Origin: a virus
DNA length: 64,000 nt
Virus genome (UHGV): UHGV-0038492
Strand: one strand, 5' to 3'
The position numbers and the translations under genes were made by a program. This document shows, piece by piece, positions 47,326 through 64,000 of this stretch (its first letter is position 1; each line of letters starts with the position of its first letter). The notes below the pieces were generated by a model. It was not told where the DNA came from, did not search any database, and was given only the letters and a program-made list of their open reading frames with translations.

Positions 47326-48174
47326 ATGTCTCTTACGTCAAAACAGAAACTGCTAAAACTCATCAACACTGAAAACAATATTATTCCACCGTTGACTTTC
47401 AGTGATGTTGAAATCGGGGAACCTACCGGTACTGGGGTTGATACCCAGGTGGTTCTGACCTCTAAACTTAAAGGCGATGAGTCTACTACTTTAACAGTGA
47501 CTTACCACCGTCGTAACTTACCTGACTACCTAACCGGTGAGTTGGTATTCGGTAACGACAGTGTGGTAACCGCATCAGATTTGCTTAATGCGATTAACGC
47601 AAAATACAACCTAAATATTTTACCCTCGGATATCGTTGACGCAAAAGTTGAAGGCGAAACCCATCAGCTTACCGCTAACGAGAAATCTTACGAGTGGTGC
47701 GGTGTAGTAACGCTTACGCTGCGCGATCCTATTGACCTGACTGAACTGTTACCGGTTACTCAATTAGAGAATCTGGTAGAGTATCCGTCCACGAAGAAAG
47801 GTAACGCGGCGGTTTATTCTCACCCGATTGATTTCACCGCAGAAAAAGATTACCTTGACCCGATTACTATCAACGACGCTGTAGACTTGGTAGAATTAGC
47901 TACTAAACTGGATAGCGTCGTTGACGAGAAATGGGTAAGCGTACCTAAGAACGCGGCTAACAACCTGTACGGAGCGAAGATTATTTACGATGGTCCAACC
48001 GCAGGTTACGAAGGCGCAAATACGAAGTTCACTCGTGTGTTGGTGCTAACACTCAGCCCGCTGTGTTCTAACCTGACCGGTAACCTGTTAATTCACTTTA
48101 ACGGGACCGATCGTCCGAAGTCGAAGATTGAATTAGCACAGACTAATCCGGTCTTACCGGGATTCTTAGATTAA
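47326..48174 (+). CDS. hypothetical protein, fibre-associated small-protein family (extended)
   Basis: 282 aa; contains SDLLNAINAKYNLNILPSDI matching the family motif. Confidence 0.65.
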   Translation: MSLTSKQKLLKLINTENNIIPPLTFSDVEIGEPTGTGVDTQVVLTSKLKGDESTTLTVTYHRRNLPDYLTGELVFGNDSVVTASDLLNAINAKYNLNILPSDIVDAKVEGETHQLTANEKSYEWCGVVTLTLRDPIDLTELLPVTQLENLVEYPSTKKGNAAVYSHPIDFTAEKDYLDPITINDAVDLVELATKLDSVVDEKWVSVPKNAANNLYGAKIIYDGPTAGYEGANTKFTRVLVLTLSPLCSNLTGNLLIHFNGTDRPKSKIELAQTNPVLPGFLD

Positions 48175-48187
48175 GAGGATTACAGTA

Positions 48188-48667
48188 ATGGCCAATCAAG
48201 AAACTATCTTCGACCTTATTAAAAAGGCTAACCCGGACGCTGAGTTCGACACCACCAAAGTCACACTGGGTGAACCGGTTGTGACCACCGGTACTTACAA
48301 TACCGAAATTACGGTTGCGTCGATTAAGAATCTCGGTTATGTTAATAAGCAAACGTTCCAGTATAACCGCATTGACGCAGGTTTGTATTTCCTGAACGTA
48401 TTACCGAAATTGTTGGTAGAATCTGCAACGACTACCGCTGACTTACTGCCCGTCATTAACGAGCAGTACAGCCTAACCCTTACAGAAGACGACGTGTGGG
48501 TAGAACAGGTTGGTGAGTTACCGTTAGACGGTAGCGCAATCGAACACGGTATTTTCTTCCGTCCTGAGTGTCTGACCTGGGTTGGTGGTTTTACAGTGCG
48601 TGTTGCGCGTAAACCGGCTGACGCCACACCGCCAAAGACGGCGTCTCGCGCTAAAAAGAAAAAATAA
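48188..48667 (+). CDS. hypothetical protein, same family
   Basis: 159 aa; ADLLPVINEQYSLTLTEDDV motif; Lys-rich C-terminus; terminator downstream. Confidence 0.6.
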   Translation: MANQETIFDLIKKANPDAEFDTTKVTLGEPVVTTGTYNTEITVASIKNLGYVNKQTFQYNRIDAGLYFLNVLPKLLVESATTTADLLPVINEQYSLTLTEDDVWVEQVGELPLDGSAIEHGIFFRPECLTWVGGFTVRVARKPADATPPKTASRAKKKK

Positions 48668-51195: not shown

Positions 51196-51334
51196 AATCT
51201 CATCCTTATTAAAATTAAGAAAAATTAATTTTTTCAGGTTAGCGCTTACTGCCAACCGTCATATCTATATTTTAGGAAATGTCTAAAATAACATTCTTAT
51301 GCAATCCACCCCTGCCACTTACGAGGTAAAAACG

Positions 51335-51871
51335 ATGGCTAAAGCCTTCAAACAGCAGCTCATCGAAGCTGTAATTGCTAAAAACTCAGAAACCGCTTCT
51401 AATCTGACGGTTGCTGATGTTGATTTTGGCGCTGTTGCTGAGTTCAGCGGAGACGCTGGCCGCAACACTAAAATTACCCTGACCGCCAAGGCAGAAAGCC
51501 AGAACTTCAAAGGCGAGAAAGAATTCCACTACATTCGTCTGGCTTCTCAAGACCTGATCGGTGCTAAAGCTTACGAACAAGCCGGTAGCCTCGATCTGGA
51601 AAACTCTGCCATTGTAACCAAACTGAACGAAGAAATGGTTACTAAAGGTTATGTCGATGACGAGTTTGCAGAGAGCGAACTGTCCATTGAGAAATCCGAA
51701 GGCGACAGCGGTGCTAAAGTTTACACTGTCAAAGTAAGCGAAGGTCACATCAAATTCCTGGCTGGTACCATTGCCACCTTCACTTATTCCAACCCAGCTC
51801 CTGAGAAGGTAGCACTGAGCGGTCTGGAAGGTGAACTTGATGGCTTCACTGCGCCGGGTGTCGGTGGCTAA
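51335..51871 (+). CDS. hypothetical protein, paralog 1 (C-terminal GELDGFTA motif)
   Basis: GAGGT RBS before ATG 51335; host-like high-expression codon choice; paralogous to ORF 51943. Confidence 0.65.
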   Translation: MAKAFKQQLIEAVIAKNSETASNLTVADVDFGAVAEFSGDAGRNTKITLTAKAESQNFKGEKEFHYIRLASQDLIGAKAYEQAGSLDLENSAIVTKLNEEMVTKGYVDDEFAESELSIEKSEGDSGAKVYTVKVSEGHIKFLAGTIATFTYSNPAPEKVALSGLEGELDGFTAPGVGG

Positions 51872-51883
51872 GTAAGTTAAATC

Positions 51884-51904
51884 GGGGGGGGGGTGACCTC
51901 CCCC
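51884..51904 (+). other. G10...C5 homopolymer hairpin between the GELDGFTA paralogs
   Basis: ATCGGGGGGGGGG TGACCT CCCCCGAT about 40 nt before ATG 51943. Confidence 0.6.
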
Positions 51905-51942
51905 GATATTTCTTTAACTCGTATTATTAAGGACCTAAGATA

Positions 51943-52473
51943 ATGGCCGCTACTAACCAGATGATGTTGGTCGCGCTTTATAATGCTGCTAACACTGAGC
52001 TACCGCATCAGATTACAGATAAAGAAGTGTCCTTTGGTTTGCCTGCTGCGCTGGAAGGCGAAGGTAAGAATACCAAAGTTACCATGACCGCACTACCGGG
52101 TTCTGAGAATTTCAAAGGCGAAATCGAACTGCATTACGATCGTCTGGAGCCAGGTGTTGTAGGACGGATTGAACTAACTGACGATCTGTCTCGCTGGGTT
52201 CAAGAAAATGAACTCCGTGCTTGGTTACAGTATTACATCAACAAAGTAAAACCTGACGACGCTATCGCACCAGGCGACGTTGTGTACAACACCGAAGACC
52301 AGAAAGACGAACATGAAAACGTCACTCTGCGTACCGTGACGTGCACCGTTACTGAAAAGAACCTCCGTTATAAACCAGGTGTAATGGCAACTTTCGTAAT
52401 TACACCGAAGGTTGTCGATAATCGTATTGACCTGGCCACCACCAACGGTGAGTTGGACGGCTTTACTGCTTAA
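51943..52473 (+). CDS. hypothetical protein, paralog 2 (C-terminal GELDGFTA motif)
   Basis: AAGGA RBS; shares TK(I/V)T(L/M)TA...ENFKGE and the C-terminal motif with ORF 51335. Confidence 0.65.
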   Translation: MAATNQMMLVALYNAANTELPHQITDKEVSFGLPAALEGEGKNTKVTMTALPGSENFKGEIELHYDRLEPGVVGRIELTDDLSRWVQENELRAWLQYYINKVKPDDAIAPGDVVYNTEDQKDEHENVTLRTVTCTVTEKNLRYKPGVMATFVITPKVVDNRIDLATTNGELDGFTA

Positions 52474-52510: not shown

Positions 52511-52546
52511 TACCTACCTCCGTAAAGGAGGTAGGTATTTTTTTTT
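52511..52546. terminator. bidirectional terminator between convergent genes
   Basis: TACCTACCTCC-GTAAA-GGAGGTAGGTA flanked by an A-run and T9. Confidence 0.75.
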
Positions 52547-52554
52547 GCCGCTAA

Positions 52555-53226
52555 TTACAGCCCTTGCTCTAATGCAAACGCTTTAATTGAATCGTAATCA
52601 CGGGCTTCGGCCCAAGCTCTGACTTCTTTTTTCTGTTCCGTCATTGCCTGATGCAGTTGCTGGTCGCGTTGCACAATAGCACCCAGCAGTGTTTTGCACT
52701 GCTCTAACGTAAACGGTTCGATACGGGTGTTGTTGGCCGTTAACCAATACGCTGGCGCGGTTTCTGACTGAATATAACGACTCAGTGCTACCTGTGACTT
52801 CTCATCTGCCTGGAAAGTGAAATCACCCACTTGAATCTCGGCATACCGCGCATCCTGATAACGGAATTCCAATGCGCTTAGGATTTTCTGAACATCGGTA
52901 AAGATATACCGCACAGTGGAGCGTAAACCCGTACGAATCTCTTCCAGGTCAATTCCCAACGTGTCGTTAACAAAGTCTTTCGCTTTCTGTAACGTAAATC
53001 GTGCTTCGATTTCAGACATGTCGTAGTTACGCATTTGTTCCAATGCTTCACGATCGGACATCCCATCAATCAATTTATAGTGCAGTAACGCACAAAAACC
53101 CGTACGACCATGATCTTCGCTACCGATTTTTTCCATATAGTTACCATGGCGGTCAATCGGTAAATCGTGCTCAAAATAACGACGACGGATTTCTTCTTTC
53201 GTTAAGCCTTCACCAGTAGCAGACAT
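52555..53226 (-). CDS. hypothetical protein, last gene of the fibre/radical-SAM operon
   Basis: 223-aa ORF overlapping the upstream gene by 25 nt; terminator downstream. Confidence 0.6.
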   Translation of the reverse strand: MSATGEGLTKEEIRRRYFEHDLPIDRHGNYMEKIGSEDHGRTGFCALLHYKLIDGMSDREALEQMRNYDMSEIEARFTLQKAKDFVNDTLGIDLEEIRTGLRSTVRYIFTDVQKILSALEFRYQDARYAEIQVGDFTFQADEKSQVALSRYIQSETAPAYWLTANNTRIEPFTLEQCKTLLGAIVQRDQQLHQAMTEQKKEVRAWAEARDYDSIKAFALEQGL

Positions 53227-53774
53227 TCATCGTCTCCTTTAATCAATCCTAATTCGATTAACAGTTCAAAATCGATATGACGGAATCTTGTATCAAAATC
53301 CGATTCCCAATCGATGCGGATACCCTGGCACTCTTCTGATGTTAGCTCGGGAAAAATTACGGTATTAAATTTCTCACGCTCATCGTAAAACCCATCAATC
53401 GGTGAGTTCGGGTTACGCGTTGCGAAAATAGTAATACCAGGGAAAGATAATGCTAACACAGTGATAGATTCTGCGCTGGGCTCACTTAAAGAGCGGCGTA
53501 GAAACGCAATTTTGTGGCGTGGGAAGTCCAATACGCGTTCTTCAAACCCTGGATTACGTTTTTCGATTTCCGCTACCGACAGGTCAGTAAGTTCGGTGCA
53601 ATACATTGGGATGATTACAGTCACGCCGTGGCGAATCAGTAAACGTTTTACGTCATCGGTAAAATCTTCGCCGTTAATCATCACGTAACAACCGAACAGC
53701 TTACTGTTTTCCAGAAACTTATCCAGAAGTCGAATTCTACGCTTCGTAATATTGTTGATCAGAATTGGTTTCAT
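53202..53774 (-). CDS. hypothetical protein co-operonic with radical-SAM enzymes
   Basis: 190-aa ORF overlapping both neighbours. Confidence 0.6.
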   Translation of the reverse strand: MKPILINNITKRRIRLLDKFLENSKLFGCYVMINGEDFTDDVKRLLIRHGVTVIIPMYCTELTDLSVAEIEKRNPGFEERVLDFPRHKIAFLRRSLSEPSAESITVLALSFPGITIFATRNPNSPIDGFYDEREKFNTVIFPELTSEECQGIRIDWESDFDTRFRHIDFELLIELGLIKGDDECLLLVKA

Positions 53775-55059
53775 CTTTGGCTTCTCTTAATAATTTTTCC
53801 TTTTGGGCGCGTTCACGAACACAGCGTGGGCAATAACACATACTCGTGTCGTGGAACGCTTTTGCTGACGTCGTACCCATCTTCTGTTTCCAGTATTCCG
53901 CCACCATCAGTTTCGCTGTCGTCCACCCGCACTGACGTCGCTCAGCGTGATACGCTTTACGGTCTTCCAGTGTCCCTTCACCGTTTTCGTAAGAAGCCGC
54001 AGCGCAGCTACCACAAGCGTGTTTCATCGGACAACCTAAGCACGTCTCTGGATAGTTGGTATATTGTGTTTGAATCTCTTCTAACAATTTACCGTTGTCC
54101 AGGCTGACGAATTCCCGACCTACCAACTCAAATACCGCAGAACGTGATGTTACGGTTGACATAAAGCGATTGCAACCGAAGATCTTACGGTCAAAACCTA
54201 AACACGTCATGTGTGTTAATGTCCCACAGAACGGACGTAAACGTTCTGGGTTCAACCGCACCGTGTCATTATAAAGTAATTGATCACGCCAGTTCGGTTC
54301 CCAAATCGTATCGAAATCCAACCCTTCTGGGATGATGTGCGATAAGATATTACGTGGGTTGGTGTGTAATCCTTTCTCGACCCAATAATCAATCACATCC
54401 ATCATCTGCAATGCAATTGAAGTAGCCATCCCACGTGGCATAATGTCTTCGAAGGTTACGTTGCCGGAGATAGTTCCGCCACCAGTAATATCAATTAATG
54501 ACTTCATTCCGGCAGCATAGTACGGTAACGTTTCTAACGTAAAGGTCGCCTTTACGCCAAGCTCTGCAATGCCAACCTCTTTTAAGTAGTTATAGCCTCG
54601 TACTGCGGCTTCGTAAGAACCCTGGCGCGTCGTTGTAAAGATACGATAACGGTCATGGGACTCAGGTAAGCCGTCAATTGAAACCCCAACCGAAAGTTTG
54701 TCTTTCCAACGCTCTACGATCTCACGGTTCAACGGGCGATCTAACAACGTCCCGTTTGTGGAAATACTAAACATAAACGGCCGATTATGTTCTTTACACA
54801 ACTGCTCGGCGGTTTCAAATGCAGCCAGCAGCAACTTAGGCTGCATGAACGGTTCACCACCGATAATGTCAATAATAACTTCAACATTCGGTTCGTTTTT
54901 ATCGCGTTCAAAACAGGCGTGCAAGAAATCAACAATATCTGCCGCTTTGTTGTTACGCGGGTACTTACGTTCGTAACAATATTCGCAGTCCAGGTTACAC
55001 GAAAGGTTCGTTACAATCTGATACGTTAGCTGCTTAGGGAATTCATTTACCTGACTCAT
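53737..55059 (-). CDS. radical SAM enzyme with C-terminal SPASM-like Cys cluster (anSME/peptide-maturase-like)
   Basis: N-terminal CNLDCEYC (CxxxCxxC), GGEPFM SAM-binding motif, and C-terminal cysteines (CLGCPMKHACGSC...CYCPRC) typical of auxiliary Fe-S clusters. Confidence 0.75.
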   Translation of the reverse strand: MSQVNEFPKQLTYQIVTNLSCNLDCEYCYERKYPRNNKAADIVDFLHACFERDKNEPNVEVIIDIIGGEPFMQPKLLLAAFETAEQLCKEHNRPFMFSISTNGTLLDRPLNREIVERWKDKLSVGVSIDGLPESHDRYRIFTTTRQGSYEAAVRGYNYLKEVGIAELGVKATFTLETLPYYAAGMKSLIDITGGGTISGNVTFEDIMPRGMATSIALQMMDVIDYWVEKGLHTNPRNILSHIIPEGLDFDTIWEPNWRDQLLYNDTVRLNPERLRPFCGTLTHMTCLGFDRKIFGCNRFMSTVTSRSAVFELVGREFVSLDNGKLLEEIQTQYTNYPETCLGCPMKHACGSCAAASYENGEGTLEDRKAYHAERRQCGWTTAKLMVAEYWKQKMGTTSAKAFHDTSMCYCPRCVRERAQKEKLLREAKDETNSDQQYYEA

Positions 55060-55966
55060 TTGCCGCCCCTCTATTACGACCTGCCATCACTACGCGACGA
55101 ATATATTCGTACGCCTCTACACCGATAGAGAAGGCCAGTTGGTTACACCCGGATTCCAGTACGTTAGGTGCGTTCTGGAGCTGGTGCTCACCACCGTCTG
55201 CATTAATCCAGAGACTTTCGCTGCAAACGTTACACCCTTCTTCAAACACTTTACTTACCGTAAAACCACATTCACGACTGTTTACTACATTCAGTCGTTC
55301 AATGTTGTCCTGAACCCGATAGTAGCCGTAAATAAAGTTCATGACGTGGTCAGGTGATAAAGGCTTTGGCATTTTCGCATCTAAGAGTAACGTCATTGCT
55401 CGGAAACCGTAATGGTAAATCGCGCTGTGCAGCTGAATAATATCTTCATGCCAACGTTTATCCCCCAAACGGTCCCGTGTCAAGACACCCCAAGTCTGGA
55501 CATTATCCAGCTCGTAGATCGTTTCCAGTGCTTCGTAACAGCCTTCGTCAATAAAGCGCATAAATGGACGCTCAGACGACTTAAACCCATCGATGCTAAC
55601 GTAGACATTGTCAAACTGTTTTAGCAACGGGAGATGCGATTTACGCATCTTTAAGCCATTGGTATACAACTGGTGTTTGAGTTCTGGACGAATCACTTTT
55701 AATTCGTCAACAAACGCCTCAATTTTACGGGTTGCCAATAGTGGCTCACCACCCGTCCACTGAATTTCGGTAATGGTTGGATTAGCTTCCAGCGCTTCCA
55801 AAATTCGCTCACGTTGAAACTCTCGCGGAGAATCTTCACGATTCATGTAATAGGCTCCACCGCAGAAGCTACAATCCAGGTTACACTTGGACGTAGCGAC
55901 TACGGACAATACGGTGGGTTTATCGTATAAACGATTCGATAACCTTGGTTCTGCATTGGTTGTCAT
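55043..55966 (-). CDS. radical SAM enzyme, paralog of the 440-aa enzyme
   Basis: CNLDCSFC and GGEPLL motifs; C-terminal Cys pairs (CGFTVSKVFEEGCNVC...GC); overlaps downstream gene by 17 nt. Confidence 0.75.
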   Translation of the reverse strand: MTTNAEPRLSNRLYDKPTVLSVVATSKCNLDCSFCGGAYYMNREDSPREFQRERILEALEANPTITEIQWTGGEPLLATRKIEAFVDELKVIRPELKHQLYTNGLKMRKSHLPLLKQFDNVYVSIDGFKSSERPFMRFIDEGCYEALETIYELDNVQTWGVLTRDRLGDKRWHEDIIQLHSAIYHYGFRAMTLLLDAKMPKPLSPDHVMNFIYGYYRVQDNIERLNVVNSRECGFTVSKVFEEGCNVCSESLWINADGGEHQLQNAPNVLESGCNQLAFSIGVEAYEYIRRVVMAGRNRGAANESGK

Positions 55967-55987: not shown

Positions 55988-56887
55988 TTAAATATAATCA
56001 ATGGCGAACAAAGGATCGTCGTCTACGTTAGCACCAGGGGTTAACAAGAATGGAGAGTTATACGCTTCCAAAATACGGTTAAGGTCTTTATAACGGACAT
56101 TTAAACGTTCTAAATCCGCTAACGTTACGTTACGGTCCAACACCGCCGACACTGCTGCTTTCTCTTCGTCAGTTAACGTGACTTTCGTCATTAAGAAACT
56201 AACGAGTTTTGCCAGATCCGCTTCTGTTGACGGATGCTCGCCGATACGCGTTTGAATCAAATGCTGCATCCATGGTTTACGGATGCGTTTTGTGATCTCA
56301 TGTTCATCCGTTAGGGCAACCCACACGGAACGTTCACGATCCCACACGAACTTATAGCTATACGCCATTAAATCCGCTAAACAATTAATCCCTAAGGCTT
56401 CGTACCCTTCAATTTCAATATACGATTCCGTATCGAAATAGTTCTTCGTTTCTGGTGTTACCAGGGTAAAGAAATACGGGAACGAGCCCAAGTAATCTGG
56501 TGACCACCAACGACGGGCAACCGGTTTTGCACCCATTTCTTCAAACGGGGTAAAGAACAATTCCATATCCACGGAGTTATTCAAAATCCCATCACTAAAG
56601 AAATATTTACCTGCAACCAATTTACCACGCAACTCAGAGTCACCGGTAAATACCACTACACTTTCTGCCGTCAGATCACGAATCTTAAACGTATTTTCTA
56701 CACGATAGTTTTTACGATCGGTAAAGAAACGTCCGCGCACTTTAGGCCATTCGCCTGGCAATTGCGTCAGCAGACGAACTTCATCTGCTAAGTGTGCACG
56801 TACGGAATCAGGGGAAGAAATGTGAAGTGGATGATTGAAAATCGTTTTGTACGCTAAATGTAAATCATTCTTCATTGATTGCTCCAA
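55988..56887 (-). CDS. hypothetical protein between Cys-rich proteins and radical-SAM enzymes
   Basis: 299-aa ORF; no motif recognised. Confidence 0.6.
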   Translation of the reverse strand: MEQSMKNDLHLAYKTIFNHPLHISSPDSVRAHLADEVRLLTQLPGEWPKVRGRFFTDRKNYRVENTFKIRDLTAESVVVFTGDSELRGKLVAGKYFFSDGILNNSVDMELFFTPFEEMGAKPVARRWWSPDYLGSFPYFFTLVTPETKNYFDTESYIEIEGYEALGINCLADLMAYSYKFVWDRERSVWVALTDEHEITKRIRKPWMQHLIQTRIGEHPSTEADLAKLVSFLMTKVTLTDEEKAAVSAVLDRNVTLADLERLNVRYKDLNRILEAYNSPFLLTPGANVDDDPLFAIDYI

Positions 56888-57142: not shown

Positions 57143-57349
57143 TTACCGCCCCCCTGCTCCCTTACTACAGCTACCGCTGCACGACCAGCTACATCCACCG
57201 TTACAGTTGTAGTGGCTTAAAGGTAAACCGGCAAGGTTATTGGTTGAAGACACGGTACCCTGGTTTGCAATATAGTTGTTTGCGTTAGCGGTCGTAATAT
57301 ACCCTTCCGCTGTTACTAAACGATCACGAAGGTTCTTAAGGCTAATCAC
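57143..57349 (-). CDS. Cys-rich protein, short copy 3
   Basis: GTG start 6 nt after GGGAGG (which is also the last two codons of the upstream gene); leader ISLKNLRDRL... then NCNGGCSWSCSGSCSKGAGGR. Confidence 0.55.
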   Translation of the reverse strand: MISLKNLRDRLVTAEGYITTANANNYIANQGTVSSTNNLAGLPLSHYNCNGGCSWSCSGSCSKGAGGR

Positions 57350-57351
57350 AA

Positions 57352-57750
57352 TTACCTCCCAGAACACCCACCGGAACAAGAACCTGAACAGCCTGAAGAA
57401 CAGTTCCCTGTACACGCGTTAGAACAGCTCCCCGTGCAACTTCCTGAACACCCACCGGAGCAGGTATTCGAACATCCGCTACAGCCCGCGCTACAACCTG
57501 ATACGCAGTTTGCAGAACACGAGGAACCACAACCACCGGATGCGTTTCCTGTGCAGCCACCAGAACAACTCGAACACGTCCAGCTACAACTACCTCCGCA
57601 GTCGTAGTGATTGCGGGCCTGTCCTCCGAATAAGTCTGCGTTGTTTGTCGCTTTCCCGCGAATATAGTTTTGTACTGCACCCGTATTCTTCAATGCAGTG
57701 CTGTCAATGTTATTTAACCGCGCTTGTAGCGCAGGTAATCCAATTGCCAT
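57352..57750 (-). CDS. Cys/Gly/Ser-rich protein, copy 2
   Basis: 132 aa; ~50-aa N-terminal leader-like region ending DCGG, then about 80 residues with 20 Cys in a C-x2-3 periodicity. Confidence 0.7.
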   Translation of the reverse strand: MAIGLPALQARLNNIDSTALKNTGAVQNYIRGKATNNADLFGGQARNHYDCGGSCSWTCSSCSGGCTGNASGGCGSSCSANCVSGCSAGCSGCSNTCSGGCSGSCTGSCSNACTGNCSSGCSGSCSGGCSGR

Positions 57751-57760
57751 TTTTCACCTC

Positions 57761-58156
57761 TTAGGTTGGGCCAGAACAGCCGCCAGAGCAGGCACCAGAA
57801 CAACCCGTAGAACAACGGCCTGAGCAAGCACCCCCACAGGTTCCGCTACAACCTGAACACCCACCTGAACACGTTGAGCTACATCCAGTACATTGGTTAC
57901 CGCACGCAGAGGAGCAGCTGCCTACACACACAGACGTACAAGTACCCGAACAGCTCGTACAACCATGCGTACAGCCGTTTGAGCACGTCCAGCTACAACT
58001 ACCTCCGCAGTCTAACCGGTTTGGCGTCCAACCCGAAAATGTGTCGGCTGCATTATGTGCTTTCGACGCAACTTGCGGATCAACACGTGGGCCAGTTGCC
58101 ATTTGGTTCTCTACGTTGGTGATTCGGTCACGTACGTTTTTAACACTGATCGCCAT
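57761..58156 (-). CDS. Cys/Gly/Ser-rich protein, copy 1
   Basis: AAGGA RBS before ATG 58156; leader MAISVKNVRDRITNV...LDCGG then 21 Cys in about 80 residues. Confidence 0.7.
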   Translation of the reverse strand: MAISVKNVRDRITNVENQMATGPRVDPQVASKAHNAADTFSGWTPNRLDCGGSCSWTCSNGCTHGCTSCSGTCTSVCVGSCSSACGNQCTGCSSTCSGGCSGCSGTCGGACSGRCSTGCSGACSGGCSGPT

Positions 58157-58223
58157 CACGTATCCTTAAAATAAAAAAGAATGGAGGACTACGTCCATAA
58201 ACATAGTTCCTCCTGTAATTAAA

Positions 58224-59429
58224 TTATTTCGTACCCGCTTCCGCCTGTACGTCATCACGAGACGTCAGGTTAGCGTTAACGTGTACTGCGGCCTGAACCA
58301 CGCCACCGTATTTCTTGTGGAGATAACCGGTGTGTGGGTTATCTGCCGCAATGTGGTTTTGTAGGTTTTGGTTCGCTTGACTGATTGCGTTCGTGTTATT
58401 GTTAACCTGCTGTTTAAGCGCATCCAGGCTTTGTTGTACCTGATTGATTTTCTGATCGGTTTCTTGACCCTGTTGCTCTAACGCGTCAACACGCTGAATA
58501 ACCTGATTCAGTTTTGTGTTTAAATCGTTGATGTTCTTTTGCAGCTGTAACACTAACGAGTTCAGGTTCGCTAACGCTAAGGCCATTTTCTGGTAGTTTT
58601 GAGCAACCACGTTAAGTTGGTCGTTCCACGCTTCCAGAGAGTTGACAACAGCGTCAATACGTTTACCTAAAGCTTCGTCCGCTTTCTTCAGTGCATTGAT
58701 TTCCGTAATCGTTGCATCGATAGCAGACTGAACGTCACGAATAAGCGCACGGATTTCAGTTTCTCTTAACCCGTTAACCTGGTGAATATCAAGATGGTGA
58801 ACGTTACCCGTTGCGTTGATGTGTGCATTTAAAGCATCTAAGAAGTCATTTTTCAGACTTTCTAAAATCGCTTTAATGTTCTCTAACTGTACCGCGTCAC
58901 CAGAACTGATCGCATCTTTAATCCCCGCCAATACGGTGATGATATATTCAAAACCGTAGATGTCACCCACGTCTTTATACGTCGGTGCAGACGGGAATGT
59001 ATCCGGTACGTTACGTAAGTCTTTAAACGCAATCGTACGGTTATCGAGGTTTAACTCAGCAATCGCCTGTTCGATAGCCACGATGTTCGCAGACTGTGGA
59101 CCACCAACGACCTGCGCAGATACCGTAATATCTGTTGGAATCGCTGTGTTAGTGACCACCACCGCCATAACAATCTCGCGGTTTTTAGTCAGCTTTTCAT
59201 AAGTCGGGTGTGCAAAAATCAACTCATAATCGGTACCACGTTCGTAGGTTGCTTCCGGTCGGTTAGCAACGCGTAAACGGAACGTGTCCGCAAAGAACGG
59301 ACCATCAGGAAAAGCAAAAGCACGGTTTACTTTACCTGTACCTAACGTAATCTGACGCTCCACAGCGTTAGACGTTAGCGAGCCCGTTAAATCTAAAGGA
59401 TATTGATAAACAATGGAGGCCATGGCCAC
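58224..59429 (-). CDS. tail fibre protein with long coiled-coil
   Basis: 401 aa; central heptad-rich Asn/Gln/Leu region typical of fibre shafts. Confidence 0.7.
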   Translation of the reverse strand: MAMASIVYQYPLDLTGSLTSNAVERQITLGTGKVNRAFAFPDGPFFADTFRLRVANRPEATYERGTDYELIFAHPTYEKLTKNREIVMAVVVTNTAIPTDITVSAQVVGGPQSANIVAIEQAIAELNLDNRTIAFKDLRNVPDTFPSAPTYKDVGDIYGFEYIITVLAGIKDAISSGDAVQLENIKAILESLKNDFLDALNAHINATGNVHHLDIHQVNGLRETEIRALIRDVQSAIDATITEINALKKADEALGKRIDAVVNSLEAWNDQLNVVAQNYQKMALALANLNSLVLQLQKNINDLNTKLNQVIQRVDALEQQGQETDQKINQVQQSLDALKQQVNNNTNAISQANQNLQNHIAADNPHTGYLHKKYGGVVQAAVHVNANLTSRDDVQAEAGTK

Positions 59430-59463: not shown

Positions 59464-62400
59464 TTAAGATGTAAACATAAGATTGAACTGGAGTTTGTCG
59501 ATATCGCGAGTTTCTGCTGGATTCACACCATCGTACGCGGTCGCTACGTAAACCGTTAGCGTGCCGTTAGCGTAAGACGATTTCACCGGTGGGTTAGTTC
59601 CAGTCTGACCATCTCGCACAATGAGTGTAGGTTCACTTGGGAGATTATCAAACTGACCCTTGACCGCTTTATACACCAAACCAGATTGCGCAGACAGTTC
59701 AGTGTCCGTAAAGACAAAGAACGGTGTGTCGATATCAGCCTGTTTAATCGTGGTACCGGTCTCGACGTCAATCAACTGTACCGCCCCAAACTTCGTACGA
59801 TAACTTTCATACTCGTTCTTCGGAATAACGAACGTGACGTGAACGCGAACCTCCTCGGCAGGTTTAAACCCAGCGTGCTCTTTTTCCAGGTACTGGTTGG
59901 CGGTTAACGTGACGTCCTGCTCTTTCATCGTACCACCGGCCTGGTTTAATGCATAGCGAGCTTCAACAATACCGGTTGGCGCAGCAAGTCGCAGTTTCAG
60001 AGCACGATTTGCCGTTCCTGGATTACCTGGCACCTGAACGCGCAAACTCAATGCTAAGTAAACATTCGTTCCGGTAGTCGGTTTCGTATACGCACCAATC
60101 CATTTCATGTTCGCAGACGCTGCCTGCGTGTTCTCAGAAGCAGTGGCTGTCGCAATGTTAGCAGCTACCGCTTTCTGCCAGAATTGGTCAGCGCAGTTCT
60201 CATACGCTACCCTGGCCACGCTCTTATAACCCGAATACGTTTCCTGAATTGGTAACTTAGGACGCGTCGTAATACCAGACAATGAACCCCATTTTTGACC
60301 GTCAACATACCCTTCGCCCTTCGACGCAGACGCCGTAGGCGCTTTAACGGGTTTGTTAACCAGTGTTAATAGAGGACCCGTCTTTCTGTCAAACGCTGCT
60401 GCAACATCATGTTGGTCGATAATTGCTGCGTGGTCTTCCAGTTCTTTCACACGACCCAAACGTTTTACTTTGTCGATGTTGATACCAGTAATACGGCTGG
60501 AATCGGTGGTTACTGACCCGACGAACAGTCTTGTTGAAGTGTCAGCTAACTGCTCCAAACCGATACGGTATTGCGCAGTAGAACCTGACACCTCAGCGTG
60601 CACGTAGAACGTCTGGTTAGCGTGGTTAGACGGGAATTCGCTGCTTAAATCCACAGACCACGTTGGGAGTGTGTAACTGCTGCTACCGAAGTCTAACTTG
60701 ACTTCTTCTGTCAAATACAGAATCCAGCCTTCTGCTGTCTCCACACCGGCAATAATAACAGCCTGACCTCCGGTTGAGAACCTCGTGTCGTTAACGAACT
60801 CTGCGGCTGTATACGCGTTACCTGAACAGAAAACACGGTCAGCTTTAGAGTAAATCAACGCCATCTTGTCCCAATTACCCGCACCCATATAGCACCCAGA
60901 TTCTGGGTTATGTGCAGGGGCCATCTGTCGTAACTGTGACTTACCAGGAACGCGAGACCAACCTGAACCTGGGTCGTAGGTATACTTCGCGGCGTAACCT
61001 AGTGCATTTAAGTCCCCGATATTTCGGATAGTTAACGTATAAGGTAGCCAAATACCGAAGTTTACACCGTCGGCAGAAGCAAAAATTGGCTGACCGACAC
61101 GTCGTGTTTTATTACCCGCTTCTTCCCTCAGAGACTGATAACTTAAACCATAATCGAGGTCTAAGAACCAGTCCACCAACTTAAAGGTGGCTGAGTTGAA
61201 ACGTAAGTAGCCGTTCTCTTTAGATGGACTCACCATGAAGTAATAGATGTCAAGAATTCGACGTCCGTTACTTGAGGTTTTCATGCACGAAACTTGCAAC
61301 AAGTCAAATTCGCACACGGTGTTGATACCCAACATCCAAAGAGCAAACAGTGCATTACCGGTTTGATGTGCAGCACTGATGCGCTCATTCGCGTAACCAT
61401 TTGCTTGACCAGATGGCGCACCGTCAACGATCATCCGAATCATTTTCTGACGATCGGCTTCTTCTAGCGTTAAGCGTTCGGAAGACAATGCGAAATTACC
61501 GTAGATGTTACGATACGGGAACGTTTCTGCTTTGGTCAAATACCAACCGTTTAGCTGCCCGTGACGCTCCTCAGGAGTCATGCACGCAGCCATACAGCTA
61601 AGCTGCTCGTAGAGCGTTGGATCGACTTCACGACGGTTGTTGTTCGGACCGTATCCGCTATAACCCGGAACATCGTAAGGTTTGTTCGGATCAACTTCTA
61701 CTTCGATGGTGTAACGGTTACGTGGGTTAGACAACCACACTTTATTCGAACCGCCTATTCCGACAGGATGGGAAAGACCGATGGTGTAAATAGAACCGCG
61801 ACCTTTATCCCAGGTAAACGTTCCTTCGCCCGAGGTGTTGTTTGGGTTATCGTAACGCAGATAATCGAAAAGCTCTTTGCCTTGTGTACCCTTAATAGAA
61901 ACATTAGGCATTTGGTCCGCATCGTTAATCTGCCAGCAGGAAAGCATCATTCCTGTACCGTTAGGTTTTGCATACGTCGCGAAACAACGGTTGTTTGCCT
62001 GACCACCACCCCACTTACGACTGGTTTCTACAGTTGAACCATCCGCGAACGAGAGTGCAGTAGCATCAGCCTTGATGGGGAAGCGTTCGCGGCCTTCTAA
62101 CGTAACCTTGCCCGTCAACGTATCGATTGTAAAACTTGTTGCCCATTGACGAAAGTTAATTTGTGAGCTGTCGGCCGCTGCAAACCACACAGTAGGCATA
62201 TGGTTCACACGAATCACGCTTTCGCGTACCGCACACGCGTGGTTACATTCTGGCCCGTGAACAAAGTTGTGGCCAATTGTCCATTTAGCCCGTGCTTCCG
62301 GCGTCAAATACGTAAAGAATTGACCCGTCTGCGACTCTTCGGTTTTCTGGCCAATACGTAGGCAGAGGTTATCTCCGAATTGTCCCATTTCACCGGTTAG

Positions 62401-64000
62401 TGTTACACGTTCAAATTCTAACGTAGTGTTAGTAGACAAATCGTCTTTACGTAAGCGCCATGCTGCAACAGCGTAAGCAGAGTTATTTACCGTGGAGCGG
62501 AGAAGATAAACATAGTCCTCAACCAACACAACGTCATCGGCTTCTGGCCACGGATTCCAGGTTTGTTCTGTAGTACCGCTGGGGTTACCGTTACGGTACA
62601 TAGGCATCGTGACACGACATACCACCGTGTGTTTAGTGTGGTCCATCGAACCATTAAACAGCACCAAATAACGATTATTGTCAGAACCCAGGCAAATAAT
62701 CGCTTCCTGACCACCGATCAATATCGCTTTTAGGGTCACTCCAGGATATTTACTCATCCCGGCAGGGTGATATTTCACTGAGGTCTGCTGCGGATTTACA
62801 AACGCGTTTGAGGTGTTAATGTCCGCGTAGCCGTAATAAATGGCTTCTGTACCCGGCACGCCATTAGAACCGTTACGTAGCGAATAAACCTTACCCTGCT
62901 GATACCCAACAACCCCTTTCTGGTAAGACTGGTTTTTGGTATAGCCCGCGTAGTTACCTAACGCTGGGATAGGTAAGAAGTTCTTATTACCGAACTTCGC
63001 ACCGCCTACCGTCCATGCCGGTAAGATGGTATTCAGTTTATCAGAGACTTTCTTAATCTCTTTTGCGAACAACCACCCTTGACGTGACGTGACAGCTTTA
63101 TCATTAGTGGTGTCAATTGCATCCCACAGCTGTAAGACACCGTCAACCGTTGCACTACCAATTGGGACGTTATCCAAGTCAGCAGTGGTGTGGGTGTGCG
63201 TTTTCAAACTCTTGTTTTTCAACACGTTCGTTAACGCTTTTGTCACAGGCTTAGCACTCGGTATGGTGTTATCCATCTTATCGATACCGAAATCGGTTTT
63301 CGTTAAGGTTAACACCATCTTGTCGCCCGTCTTAACAAACCCTTTACCGTTAACGGTATAGTCATCGTCAACGTACAGGTCCAAACGGTCTTTTAGTTCG
63401 GTTACGGCTTTCTGGGAGATGGCAGTACCTAACGCCGCAGACGTAGAGATGTTCGTAATCGAGAACAACCCATAAACTGATTCGGACGCTGTGGGAATAT
63501 TCGCGTTTAACGTGACCGGGTTAGTCTGTTTTGCAGTACCGTACGGTTTTACGGTGTCTGACGCTTTGAAATACGCGTTTGCTTCAAGCAACGTTACTGA
63601 CGTCAGATACATGTTCACCATTTCTGGCGTGACCAGGTACACGGAGTTATAAACCGGTGCTAATACATCCTGTTCTGACCCCGAGTGAACCCAAAGCGTA
63701 TTCAGACCCGCACTAAACTCCACCGCTAAACCTGATTCGTTATTGTCCTGGTCTGCTTTAATCACTAACGGTTGCGGTGAGGTAATTAACCACTTATCAC
63801 CACGAATACTGATGATGTGACCACCTGACGTTTTAAACGTTAATTCATTACCGTTCGTGGTACCCCATCGACCGTAAACAGTACCGAGGGCTTCACCCAT
63901 TAACTGATCAACGTCGGATTGCTCGATACCCGCTGAACCCATCAGCGTAGCCAATTCGTCAATCGTCAACCCAAATGCTTTTGTGGCGTCAACAGCGCGT
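59464..64000 (-). CDS. very large tail fibre/receptor-binding protein, 5' end outside window
   Basis: More than 1500 codons open to the window edge (track start at 63969 is a TTG and the frame stays open); Thr/Ser/Gly/Asn-rich beta-type composition. Confidence 0.8.
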   Translation of the reverse strand, partial: RAVDATKAFGLTIDELATLMGSAGIEQSDVDQLMGEALGTVYGRWGTTNGNELTFKTSGGHIISIRGDKWLITSPQPLVIKADQDNNESGLAVEFSAGLNTLWVHSGSEQDVLAPVYNSVYLVTPEMVNMYLTSVTLLEANAYFKASDTVKPYGTAKQTNPVTLNANIPTASESVYGLFSITNISTSAALGTAISQKAVTELKDRLDLYVDDDYTVNGKGFVKTGDKMVLTLTKTDFGIDKMDNTIPSAKPVTKALTNVLKNKSLKTHTHTTADLDNVPIGSATVDGVLQLWDAIDTTNDKAVTSRQGWLFAKEIKKVSDKLNTILPAWTVGGAKFGNKNFLPIPALGNYAGYTKNQSYQKGVVGYQQGKVYSLRNGSNGVPGTEAIYYGYADINTSNAFVNPQQTSVKYHPAGMSKYPGVTLKAILIGGQEAIICLGSDNNRYLVLFNGSMDHTKHTVVCRVTMPMYRNGNPSGTTEQTWNPWPEADDVVLVEDYVYLLRSTVNNSAYAVAAWRLRKDDLSTNTTLEFERVTLTGEMGQFGDNLCLRIGQKTEESQTGQFFTYLTPEARAKWTIGHNFVHGPECNHACAVRESVIRVNHMPTVWFAAADSSQINFRQWATSFTIDTLTGKVTLEGRERFPIKADATALSFADGSTVETSRKWGGGQANNRCFATYAKPNGTGMMLSCWQINDADQMPNVSIKGTQGKELFDYLRYDNPNNTSGEGTFTWDKGRGSIYTIGLSHPVGIGGSNKVWLSNPRNRYTIEVEVDPNKPYDVPGYSGYGPNNNRREVDPTLYEQLSCMAACMTPEERHGQLNGWYLTKAETFPYRNIYGNFALSSERLTLEEADRQKMIRMIVDGAPSGQANGYANERISAAHQTGNALFALWMLGINTVCEFDLLQVSCMKTSSNGRRILDIYYFMVSPSKENGYLRFNSATFKLVDWFLDLDYGLSYQSLREEAGNKTRRVGQPIFASADGVNFGIWLPYTLTIRNIGDLNALGYAAKYTYDPGSGWSRVPGKSQLRQMAPAHNPESGCYMGAGNWDKMALIYSKADRVFCSGNAYTAAEFVNDTRFSTGGQAVIIAGVETAEGWILYLTEEVKLDFGSSSYTLPTWSVDLSSEFPSNHANQTFYVHAEVSGSTAQYRIGLEQLADTSTRLFVGSVTTDSSRITGINIDKVKRLGRVKELEDHAAIIDQHDVAAAFDRKTGPLLTLVNKPVKAPTASASKGEGYVDGQKWGSLSGITTRPKLPIQETYSGYKSVARVAYENCADQFWQKAVAANIATATASENTQAASANMKWIGAYTKPTTGTNVYLALSLRVQVPGNPGTANRALKLRLAAPTGIVEARYALNQAGGTMKEQDVTLTANQYLEKEHAGFKPAEEVRVHVTFVIPKNEYESYRTKFGAVQLIDVETGTTIKQADIDTPFFVFTDTELSAQSGLVYKAVKGQFDNLPSEPTLIVRDGQTGTNPPVKSSYANGTLTVYVATAYDGVNPAETRDIDKLQFNLMFTS

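Follow-up and report, generated by a model that had tools for sequence, protein, structure and literature searches.

A 64,000-nucleotide (nt) stretch of DNA from the virus genome UHGV-0038492, the whole of which is called the window here, carries three tandem genes for cysteine (Cys)-rich proteins, copies 1 to 3. Just downstream is a dedicated maturation set, made up of an accessory protein and two radical S-adenosylmethionine (radical SAM) enzymes, to which their C-terminal C-[S/T]-G-x repeat domains are genetically linked. On balance, we favour the view that the trio belong to the fibre module and have their Cys-rich ends modified, probably through thioether cross-linking, by enzymes of the phage that are of the type that matures ribosomally synthesized and post-translationally modified peptides (RiPPs). 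The process is probably the enzymatic maturation of a virion fibre rather than the production of a secreted peptide, because the relatives of the trio are phage tail-fibre tips.

The three genes, encoding proteins of 68-132 amino acids (aa), lie within ~1.2 kb upstream of both radical SAM genes and on the same strand. Their coordinates and lengths, as given in a preliminary description of this DNA, were confirmed by an open reading frame (ORF) and sequence check, which placed all three on the minus strand. The trio and its maturation set are as follows:

57761-58156, minus strand: Cys-rich copy 1; ATG start; 131 aa; 21 Cys; phrog_6085 (E 1.7e-40)
57352-57750, minus strand: Cys-rich copy 2; 132 aa; 20 Cys; phrog_6085
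57143-57349, minus strand: Cys-rich copy 3; GTG start at 57349, stop at 57143; 68 aa; 5 Cys; phrog_6085 (E 2.3e-24)
55988-56875, minus strand: accessory protein; 295 aa; phrog_8030
55043-55966, minus strand: radical SAM enzyme 2 (rSAM-2); 307 aa; PF04055 (E 6e-14); phrog_1802
53737-55059, minus strand: radical SAM/SPASM enzyme 1 (rSAM-1); 440 aa; best family TIGR04115

The source of the window is a jumbo phage related to Salmonella phage SPN3US, with ~71% DNA identity over the aligning part of the cassette region and 82% in the large radical SAM protein. No record closer than SPN3US was present in the phage collection searched.

The three Cys-rich proteins

All three proteins have the same layout, in which a homologous N-terminus of ~49 residues leads through a C-x-G-x-C-S-W junction into C-[S/T]-G-x repeats. 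Specifically, copy 1 consists of an N-terminal helix, a pre-junction motif, the junction C-G-G-S-C-S-W and ~20 C-[S/T]-G-x units, while copy 3 has the N-terminus and junction of copies 1 and 2 and only ~20 residues beyond its first Cys. The pre-junction motif of copy 2, KATNNADLFGGQARNHYD, is found again in a fibre-like protein of a Deferribacter prophage (see below). The N-terminal similarity noted in the preliminary description is true homology and not a matter of composition only: with the Cys-rich parts left out, the N-termini of the three paralogue groups align by hhalign with E values of 5e-12, 7.5e-9 and 2.4e-9 over 45-48 columns, and a single PHROG, phrog_6085 (function not known), takes in all three proteins. 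By BLASTP, copy 1 matches copy 2 (4e-6) and copy 3 (1e-5), and the match between copies 2 and 3 is not significant. When the N-termini and cores are aligned, as that description had proposed, the junction is invariant across the paralogues.

The cores of the long copies are built mostly of CX3 units, with a few CX2 units, and are composed of 30% Ser, 25% Cys and 25% Gly; Asp and Glu are outside the 12 commonest residues of cores of this type. Tandem Repeats Finder reported a single weak 12-nt repeat (2.8 copies, 80% matches) in the DNA of the Cys-rich region, and the repetition therefore lies in the protein and not in the DNA. The junction reads C-[G/N]-G-x-C in the jumbo phages, as against C-S-D-C in Deferribacter, and falls inside the first CXXX unit. 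Against TIGR04114, the "Cys-rich (CXXX) repeat-containing protein" family with a cut-off of 20 bits, copy 2 scores 20.7 bits and copy 1 scores 14.5 bits; copy 3 has no match. A Pfam scan of the three proteins gave no match, and a whole-protein profile compared with PDB sequences gave only insignificant matches, to nematocyst Cys-rich repeats.

The genes are closely packed. Copy 2 ends in GGG AGG TAA, followed by TT and the GTG start of copy 3, so that its last codons double as the Shine-Dalgarno sequence of the next gene, just as the preliminary description had read them. The gap between copies 1 and 2 is 10 nt long and contains GAGGTG.

Conservation among SPN3US-like jumbo phages

The gene order of the cassette is common to eight SPN3US-like jumbo phages of six genera, which formed the comparison set: SPN3US, Proteus phage 7, pEa_SNUABM_29, phiEaH2, Machina, Kwan, CR5 and Phobos. 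In each of them the trio, of the 130/133/68-aa type, is made up of two long proteins of 127-142 aa and a short one of 68-69 aa. The Cys count of copy 1 is 21 without exception, in a nearly fixed spacing string, and that of copy 2 is 20-23. Conservation is highest in the short copy, at 90% amino acid identity to SPN3US, as compared with 69-74% for the two long ones. Saturation is seen at synonymous sites; nonsynonymous divergence (dN) is 0.1-0.3 relative to the closer relatives and reaches ~0.9 relative to the most distant. Where synonymous divergence (dS) could be estimated, dN/dS is ~0.1-0.3 (~0.13-0.2 for copy 1), with the exception of one 20-codon core comparison at 0.72.

On this sequence evidence, the trio is a set of three old, separately maintained genes and no decaying array. 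The preliminary description had suggested that copy 3 was a product of copy-number decay and that the core was prone to in-frame expansion and contraction, and had recommended a comparison of copy number and core length across related phages; that comparison went against both suggestions. Recent duplication and decay are ruled out by the presence of orthologues of each copy in six genera, and the short copy, 68-69 aa in eight of eight phages, has a dN far below its dS where dS could be estimated. Likewise, length variation driven by slippage is ruled out by the fixed Cys count and the weakness of the DNA repeat.

A further set of seemingly divergent cassettes, from the SPFM phages, was rejected as a database artefact. 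The SPFM14 record (L022, LR535912.1 93138-107434) is scrambled in blocks of ~60 nt, each of which matches SPN3US in one orientation while the block order runs opposite, as if the lines of a file had been reversed. The scrambling gives rise to false "divergent" proteins (P0037-41 and P0150-158), and other SPFM records with fragmentary matches are probably affected too.

The radical SAM enzymes and the accessory protein

The larger enzyme, rSAM-1, has a CX3CX2C motif (CNLDCEYC) at residues 21-28 with no N-terminal extension ahead of it, a CX2CX5CX2C motif (CLGCPMKHACGSC) at residues 340-352, and further Cys at 278, 286, 296 and 377. Among the NCBIfam models, it scores 116.9 bits with TIGR04115, "radical SAM peptide maturase, CXXX-repeat target family" (343 of 359 model positions aligned; cut-off 350 bits), and 115.9 bits with PapB (cut-off 340 bits), followed by TIGR03906 at 61 bits and the SCIFF maturase at 58 bits (cut-off 425). 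No family scores higher than TIGR04115 with rSAM-1 or with most of its phage homologues; the phage and prophage homologues reach 144-174 bits, and the phage enzymes form a separate branch under the TIGR04115 cut-off. The closest solved structure is that of CteB (5wgg, E 1.3e-13).

The second enzyme, rSAM-2, has its CX3CX2C motif (CNLDCSFC) at residues 28-35 and four C-terminal Cys, enough for one auxiliary cluster; among solved structures, SkfB comes closest to it (E 3e-6). PF04055 is above its cut-off for rSAM-2, and for rSAM-1 it comes from the precomputed annotation of an identical database protein (P0070).

The accessory protein is 295 aa long from the ATG used by its homologues, and the ORF list begins 4 codons earlier at a TTG. 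In the homologue search it was restricted to this phage clade, and its position is constant, either between the CXXX protein or proteins and the radical SAM genes or beside them. Its predicted fold is confident (predicted local distance difference test score, pLDDT, 86), and no structural neighbour of the model was found, which makes it a fold orphan.

The module in distant lineages

A profile of the N-terminus and junction was searched against 1.84 billion representative proteins, only 28 of which matched. Four of the 28 (185-258 aa) carry the pre-junction motif, the junction and CXXX repeats at their C-terminal ends, preceded by longer N-terminal parts, and those of two of the relatives, P0065 and P0068, match phrog_5073, "tail fiber". 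Another relative, P0069, reaches the TIGR04114 cut-off. The pre-junction motif can be written (K)ATNNADxLGGxxxxHY, and in the relatives it sits inside longer proteins with tail-fibre-like N-terminal parts. Because of this placement, the N-terminus is not simply the disposable leader that the preliminary description had taken it to be. The whole N-terminus is not claimed as a fibre domain, a possibility that was set aside when an N-terminus-only profile matched the relatives weakly and over the last ~18 residues.

The contigs of these relatives carry the same module. In contig L011, the order is CXXX protein, small radical SAM enzyme, phrog_8030-like protein and SPASM radical SAM enzyme. Further modules were traced from distant rSAM-1 homologues in three cases. 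For example, in a P2-like prophage of Campylobacter pinnipediorum, a PF12571 tail-fibre protein ends with a CXXX run that includes CNGCSGSCSGSCSSGCTACSGCSGSCSG, and the fibre gene is followed by genes for a 250-aa protein and two radical SAM enzymes, all of them between Tail_P2_I and the sheath gene. In a prophage of Deferribacter abyssi, GpJ is followed by a 302-aa protein that has fibre-type HDxRYYTE repeats and 29 Cys and ends with KATNADQLGGQAGSYYRCSDCSWTCSSSC...; downstream are a homologue of the accessory protein (hhalign 97%, E 9e-12) and two radical SAM enzymes. Finally, the 140-kb metagenomic contig L020 encodes a 271-aa coiled-coil protein with a terminal CXXX run, and then the same three helpers.

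Taken as a whole, a CXXX protein, an accessory protein and two radical SAM enzymes are linked in five lineages (the SPN3US-like jumbo phages, L011, L020, and the Deferribacter and Campylobacter prophages), and in all lineages examined the module is within a tail-gene block. Judging from these relatives, the pre-junction motif and the repeats belong to fibre-type proteins in other lineages. Homologues of rSAM-1 occur in phage tail modules more widely, and radical SAM enzymes in such modules may have other targets too. In the two metagenome or metagenome-assembled genome contigs L019 and L021, for example, SPASM homologues of 28-37% identity are encoded among phage tail genes.

The tail gene block and the virion proteome

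The genes of the cassette are all on the minus strand. Around the trio and its maturation set, the following features were identified:

59464-63969, minus strand: giant protein; 1501 aa; first in transcription order
58224-59429, minus strand: coiled-coil fibre protein; 401 aa; directly upstream of copy 1; orthologue of SPN3US gp167
58183-58213 (within 58168-58213), minus strand: hairpin followed by a U-run, terminator-like, fold -20.9 kcal/mol, z -2.3; between the 401-aa fibre gene and copy 1
52555-53774, minus strand: two downstream genes with synteny kept; 190 aa, phrog_7988, and 223 aa, phrog_8169

The SPN3US orthologue of the 223-aa gene is annotated as a DUF4376-domain protein, and the gene bears a weak resemblance to tail-fibre proteins. 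The trio is flanked by orthologues of SPN3US gp167/gp168, which are tail virion proteins, and by DUF4376/chaperone-like genes, in what amounts to a tail gene block.

Published work on SPN3US places gp167-173 in the virion as non-head proteins and identifies gp168 as a tail protein (PMC5105663, PMC5694885 Supplementary Table 1), with gp167 an abundant non-head virion protein by mass spectrometry (PMC5694885 Supplementary Table 1). The enzymes and accessory protein, gp163-165, are not among the proteins of the particle (PMC5105663, PMC5694885 Supplementary Table 1). The location of gp163-165 outside the particle and of gp167-173 inside it fits a division between enzymes and structure.

Cys-rich genes are missing or miscalled in most public records, including L001 (SPN3US NC_027402.1 143191-144220), L003, L006, L007 and L008. 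In several records of Erwinia and Cronobacter phages, the ORFs annotated at the trio are on the opposite strand, and all three genes are annotated only in Machina (gp177/176/175). In SPN3US itself, the ORF annotated as gp166 (ACQ60_gp100) falls within copy 2 but out of frame; the corrected genes are at 143191-143397, 143413-143817 and 143828-144220 on the minus strand. Proteomic and structural studies to date could not have seen the trio, because its genes are missing or mis-framed in most annotations, that of SPN3US included.

The hairpin between the fibre gene and copy 1 is kept in eight of eight related phages, and its stem co-varies through compensatory changes. Its loop is UUUAUGG in the window phage, with a UAUG core conserved across the eight. 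It looks like a terminator, and may also be a late-promoter or processing signal that separates the trio from the fibre transcript. At the other end of the cassette, a perfect 11-bp GC-rich hairpin at 52511-52537, with a T-run on the plus strand only, is located between convergent genes at the downstream end of the cassette transcription unit. Plus-strand genes of ~160-280 aa flank the cassette (47326-48667 and 51299-52473). At least two of them, at 51299-51871 and 51943-52473, have N-terminal halves that are alike as judged by eye, and these flanking genes are possible counterparts of the SPN3US head "paralog family B", gp160 included.

Proposed maturation and alternative explanations

By analogy with PapB, CteB and SkfB, the radical SAM enzymes would abstract hydrogen from residues of the repeats and join Cys sulfur to carbon, thereby forming thioethers. 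Such cross-linking could turn a floppy Gly/Ser/Cys chain into a rigid rod or knob resistant to proteases and heat. The N-terminal helix and the (K)ATNNADxLGGxxxxHY motif would serve as a handle for the maturation proteins and as an assembly or docking segment, and would be retained on the protein with no leader cleavage. The three paralogues would work jointly, possibly as one hetero-oligomer on or at the tip of a gp167-type fibre, and the modified products would remain with the fibre. More tentatively, it is tempting to suggest that phages of several unrelated tail types use a radical SAM pair and a fold-orphan partner to weld Cys-rich fibre ends into a cross-linked rod or knob. Under such a scheme, the jumbo phages would carry the CXXX part split off as three small, co-evolving subunits.

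Several results weigh against the view that the trio are cross-linked fibre-module proteins. The Cys-rich proteins of the window themselves match no fibre family and have no recognisable fibre shaft, and an AlphaFold2 monomer model of copy 1 was uninformative (pLDDT 45). Outside the Cys-rich part, the resemblance of the window N-termini to the fibre-like relatives amounts to ~18 residues before the first Cys and 2-10 bits. The SPN3US proteome is silent on the trio, which is undetectable there because its genes are unannotated, and hence outside the virion search database, and gp166 is out of frame. Likewise, rSAM-1 is well below the cut-offs of both of its nearest families (117 versus 350 bits for TIGR04115 and 116 versus 340 for PapB), and no CXXX-repeat protein was found near the radical SAM homologues of L019 and L021. 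Finally, the cores are almost without Asp or Glu, the acceptors of PapB and QhpD; Thr and Ser are possible candidate acceptors in their place.

An alternative that we consider unlikely is a true phage RiPP, in which the ~49-residue N-terminus would act as a leader, directing the radical SAM enzymes before being cut off, with cores that are freed at lysis or act in the cell as a toxin, metal binder or signal. The preliminary description had proposed a leader-core layout of this kind, and part of it stands: a conserved N-terminus is followed by a Cys-rich part, the most conserved motif adjoins the core, and small, precursor-sized, translationally coupled genes are present in several copies beside RiPP-type maturases. 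The absence of the trio from reports on the SPN3US virion is also as a RiPP would have it, in a search database that could not have shown these proteins. Leader removal would call for a conserved cleavage motif and for a peptidase or peptidase-exporter in the cluster. The Gly-Gly that had been taken for a junction of this type is within the first repeat unit and is unconserved, and no peptidase or exporter/transporter family was matched by the cassette genes that were searched, whether those of the window or those examined in the distant modules. Moreover, the junction and repeats recur in the relatives at the ends of 185-385-aa proteins that have tail-fibre parts, a recognisable P2-type fibre among them, and the module always lies within tail-gene blocks.

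Non-virion assembly factors are a still less probable explanation. The trio would then be modified by the radical SAM enzymes and act transiently, as a scaffold, chaperone or redox/metal donor, in the folding of the neighbouring fibres. The proteins are small, they occupy what in P2-like phages is the slot of the fibre chaperone, and DUF4376- and chaperone-like genes adjoin them. This explanation is difficult to reconcile with Campylobacter, Deferribacter, L020 and L011, where the repeats are built into the fibre-like polypeptide, and the constancy of the 21 Cys, together with the conservation of the three paralogues, points to a final structure that is defined.

Least probable of all, and by our estimate very improbable, are unmodified metal-binding (Zn, Fe, Cu) or disulfide-rich proteins resembling metallothioneins or T4 fibre tips, with the radical SAM enzymes acting elsewhere: the metallothionein-like Cys/Gly/Ser composition, the weak and non-significant resemblance to Cys-rich nematocyst wall repeats and the metal ions held by the T4 gp37 and gp12 fibres are in its favour, but five very different lineages retain the linkage of CXXX protein, radical SAM pair and accessory protein, and the families to which the radical SAM enzyme comes nearest are defined by their Cys-rich peptide targets.

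Significance and comparison with known systems

Radical SAM peptide maturases are known from RiPP pathways and from a few enzyme subunits, and here they appear to be built into the tail-fibre modules of phages, among them jumbo myoviruses as well as a P2-like and a siphovirus-like prophage. If the proposed cross-linking is true, it would amount to an enzyme-based way of making receptor-binding or fibre structures that are very stable, and would give the orphan "CXXX-repeat" radical SAM family a biological role. It would also be the first RiPP-type radical chemistry to build a part of a virion, with the CXXX rod as a new structural element and a source of compact, genetically encoded, heavily cross-linked scaffolds of ~80 residues. 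Literature searches found no paper describing this phage module, and none on the chemistry of TIGR04114/TIGR04115 or any link of these families to phage tails.

The nearest known counterpart is TIGR04114/TIGR04115, a computationally defined NCBIfam pair. As in the phage cassette, a CX3-repeat target is located beside a SPASM radical SAM enzyme without an N-terminal extension. Unlike that pair, the phage module has two radical SAM enzymes and an orphan accessory protein, its enzymes score 117-174 bits against the cut-off of 350 (a third to half), and its targets are phage tail-module proteins, some of them full tail fibres. The pairing of CXXX repeats with a radical SAM enzyme is already known as a computational family, and, judged by these scores and settings, the phage version is a separate branch of it in tail-fibre modules.

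The ranthipeptide systems PapB/PapA (freyrasin) and CteB/SCIFF likewise pair a SPASM enzyme with a Cys-rich target. PapB makes i-to-i+4 thioether rings in repeated CX3D units, with a period similar to that of the repeats of the trio. In contrast to the targets of these systems, the trio has cores without Asp/Glu acceptors, is 5-10 times longer in Cys count and is found in a phage structural context, with no leader peptidase or exporter.

A precedent for a product that is retained is the quinohemoprotein amine dehydrogenase gamma subunit QhpC, a small protein in which the SPASM enzyme QhpD introduces several intra-protein Cys thioethers and which is kept as a structural subunit of a larger assembly. 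On the enzyme side, TIGR03906 (61 bits) is the point of contact with rSAM-1. The phage module differs in that QhpD is a bacterial periplasmic enzyme of low similarity to the phage enzyme, and in that QhpC uses Asp/Glu acceptors and has its leader removed by a dedicated protease.

Finally, fibre maturation as it is known depends on chaperones, such as T4 gp57A/gp38 and P2 gpG, or on self-cleaving C-terminal chaperone domains. The Campylobacter accessory protein and two radical SAM enzymes occupy the usual slot of such a chaperone after the fibre gene; unlike the chaperones, which perform no covalent chemistry, the helpers here are radical enzymes.

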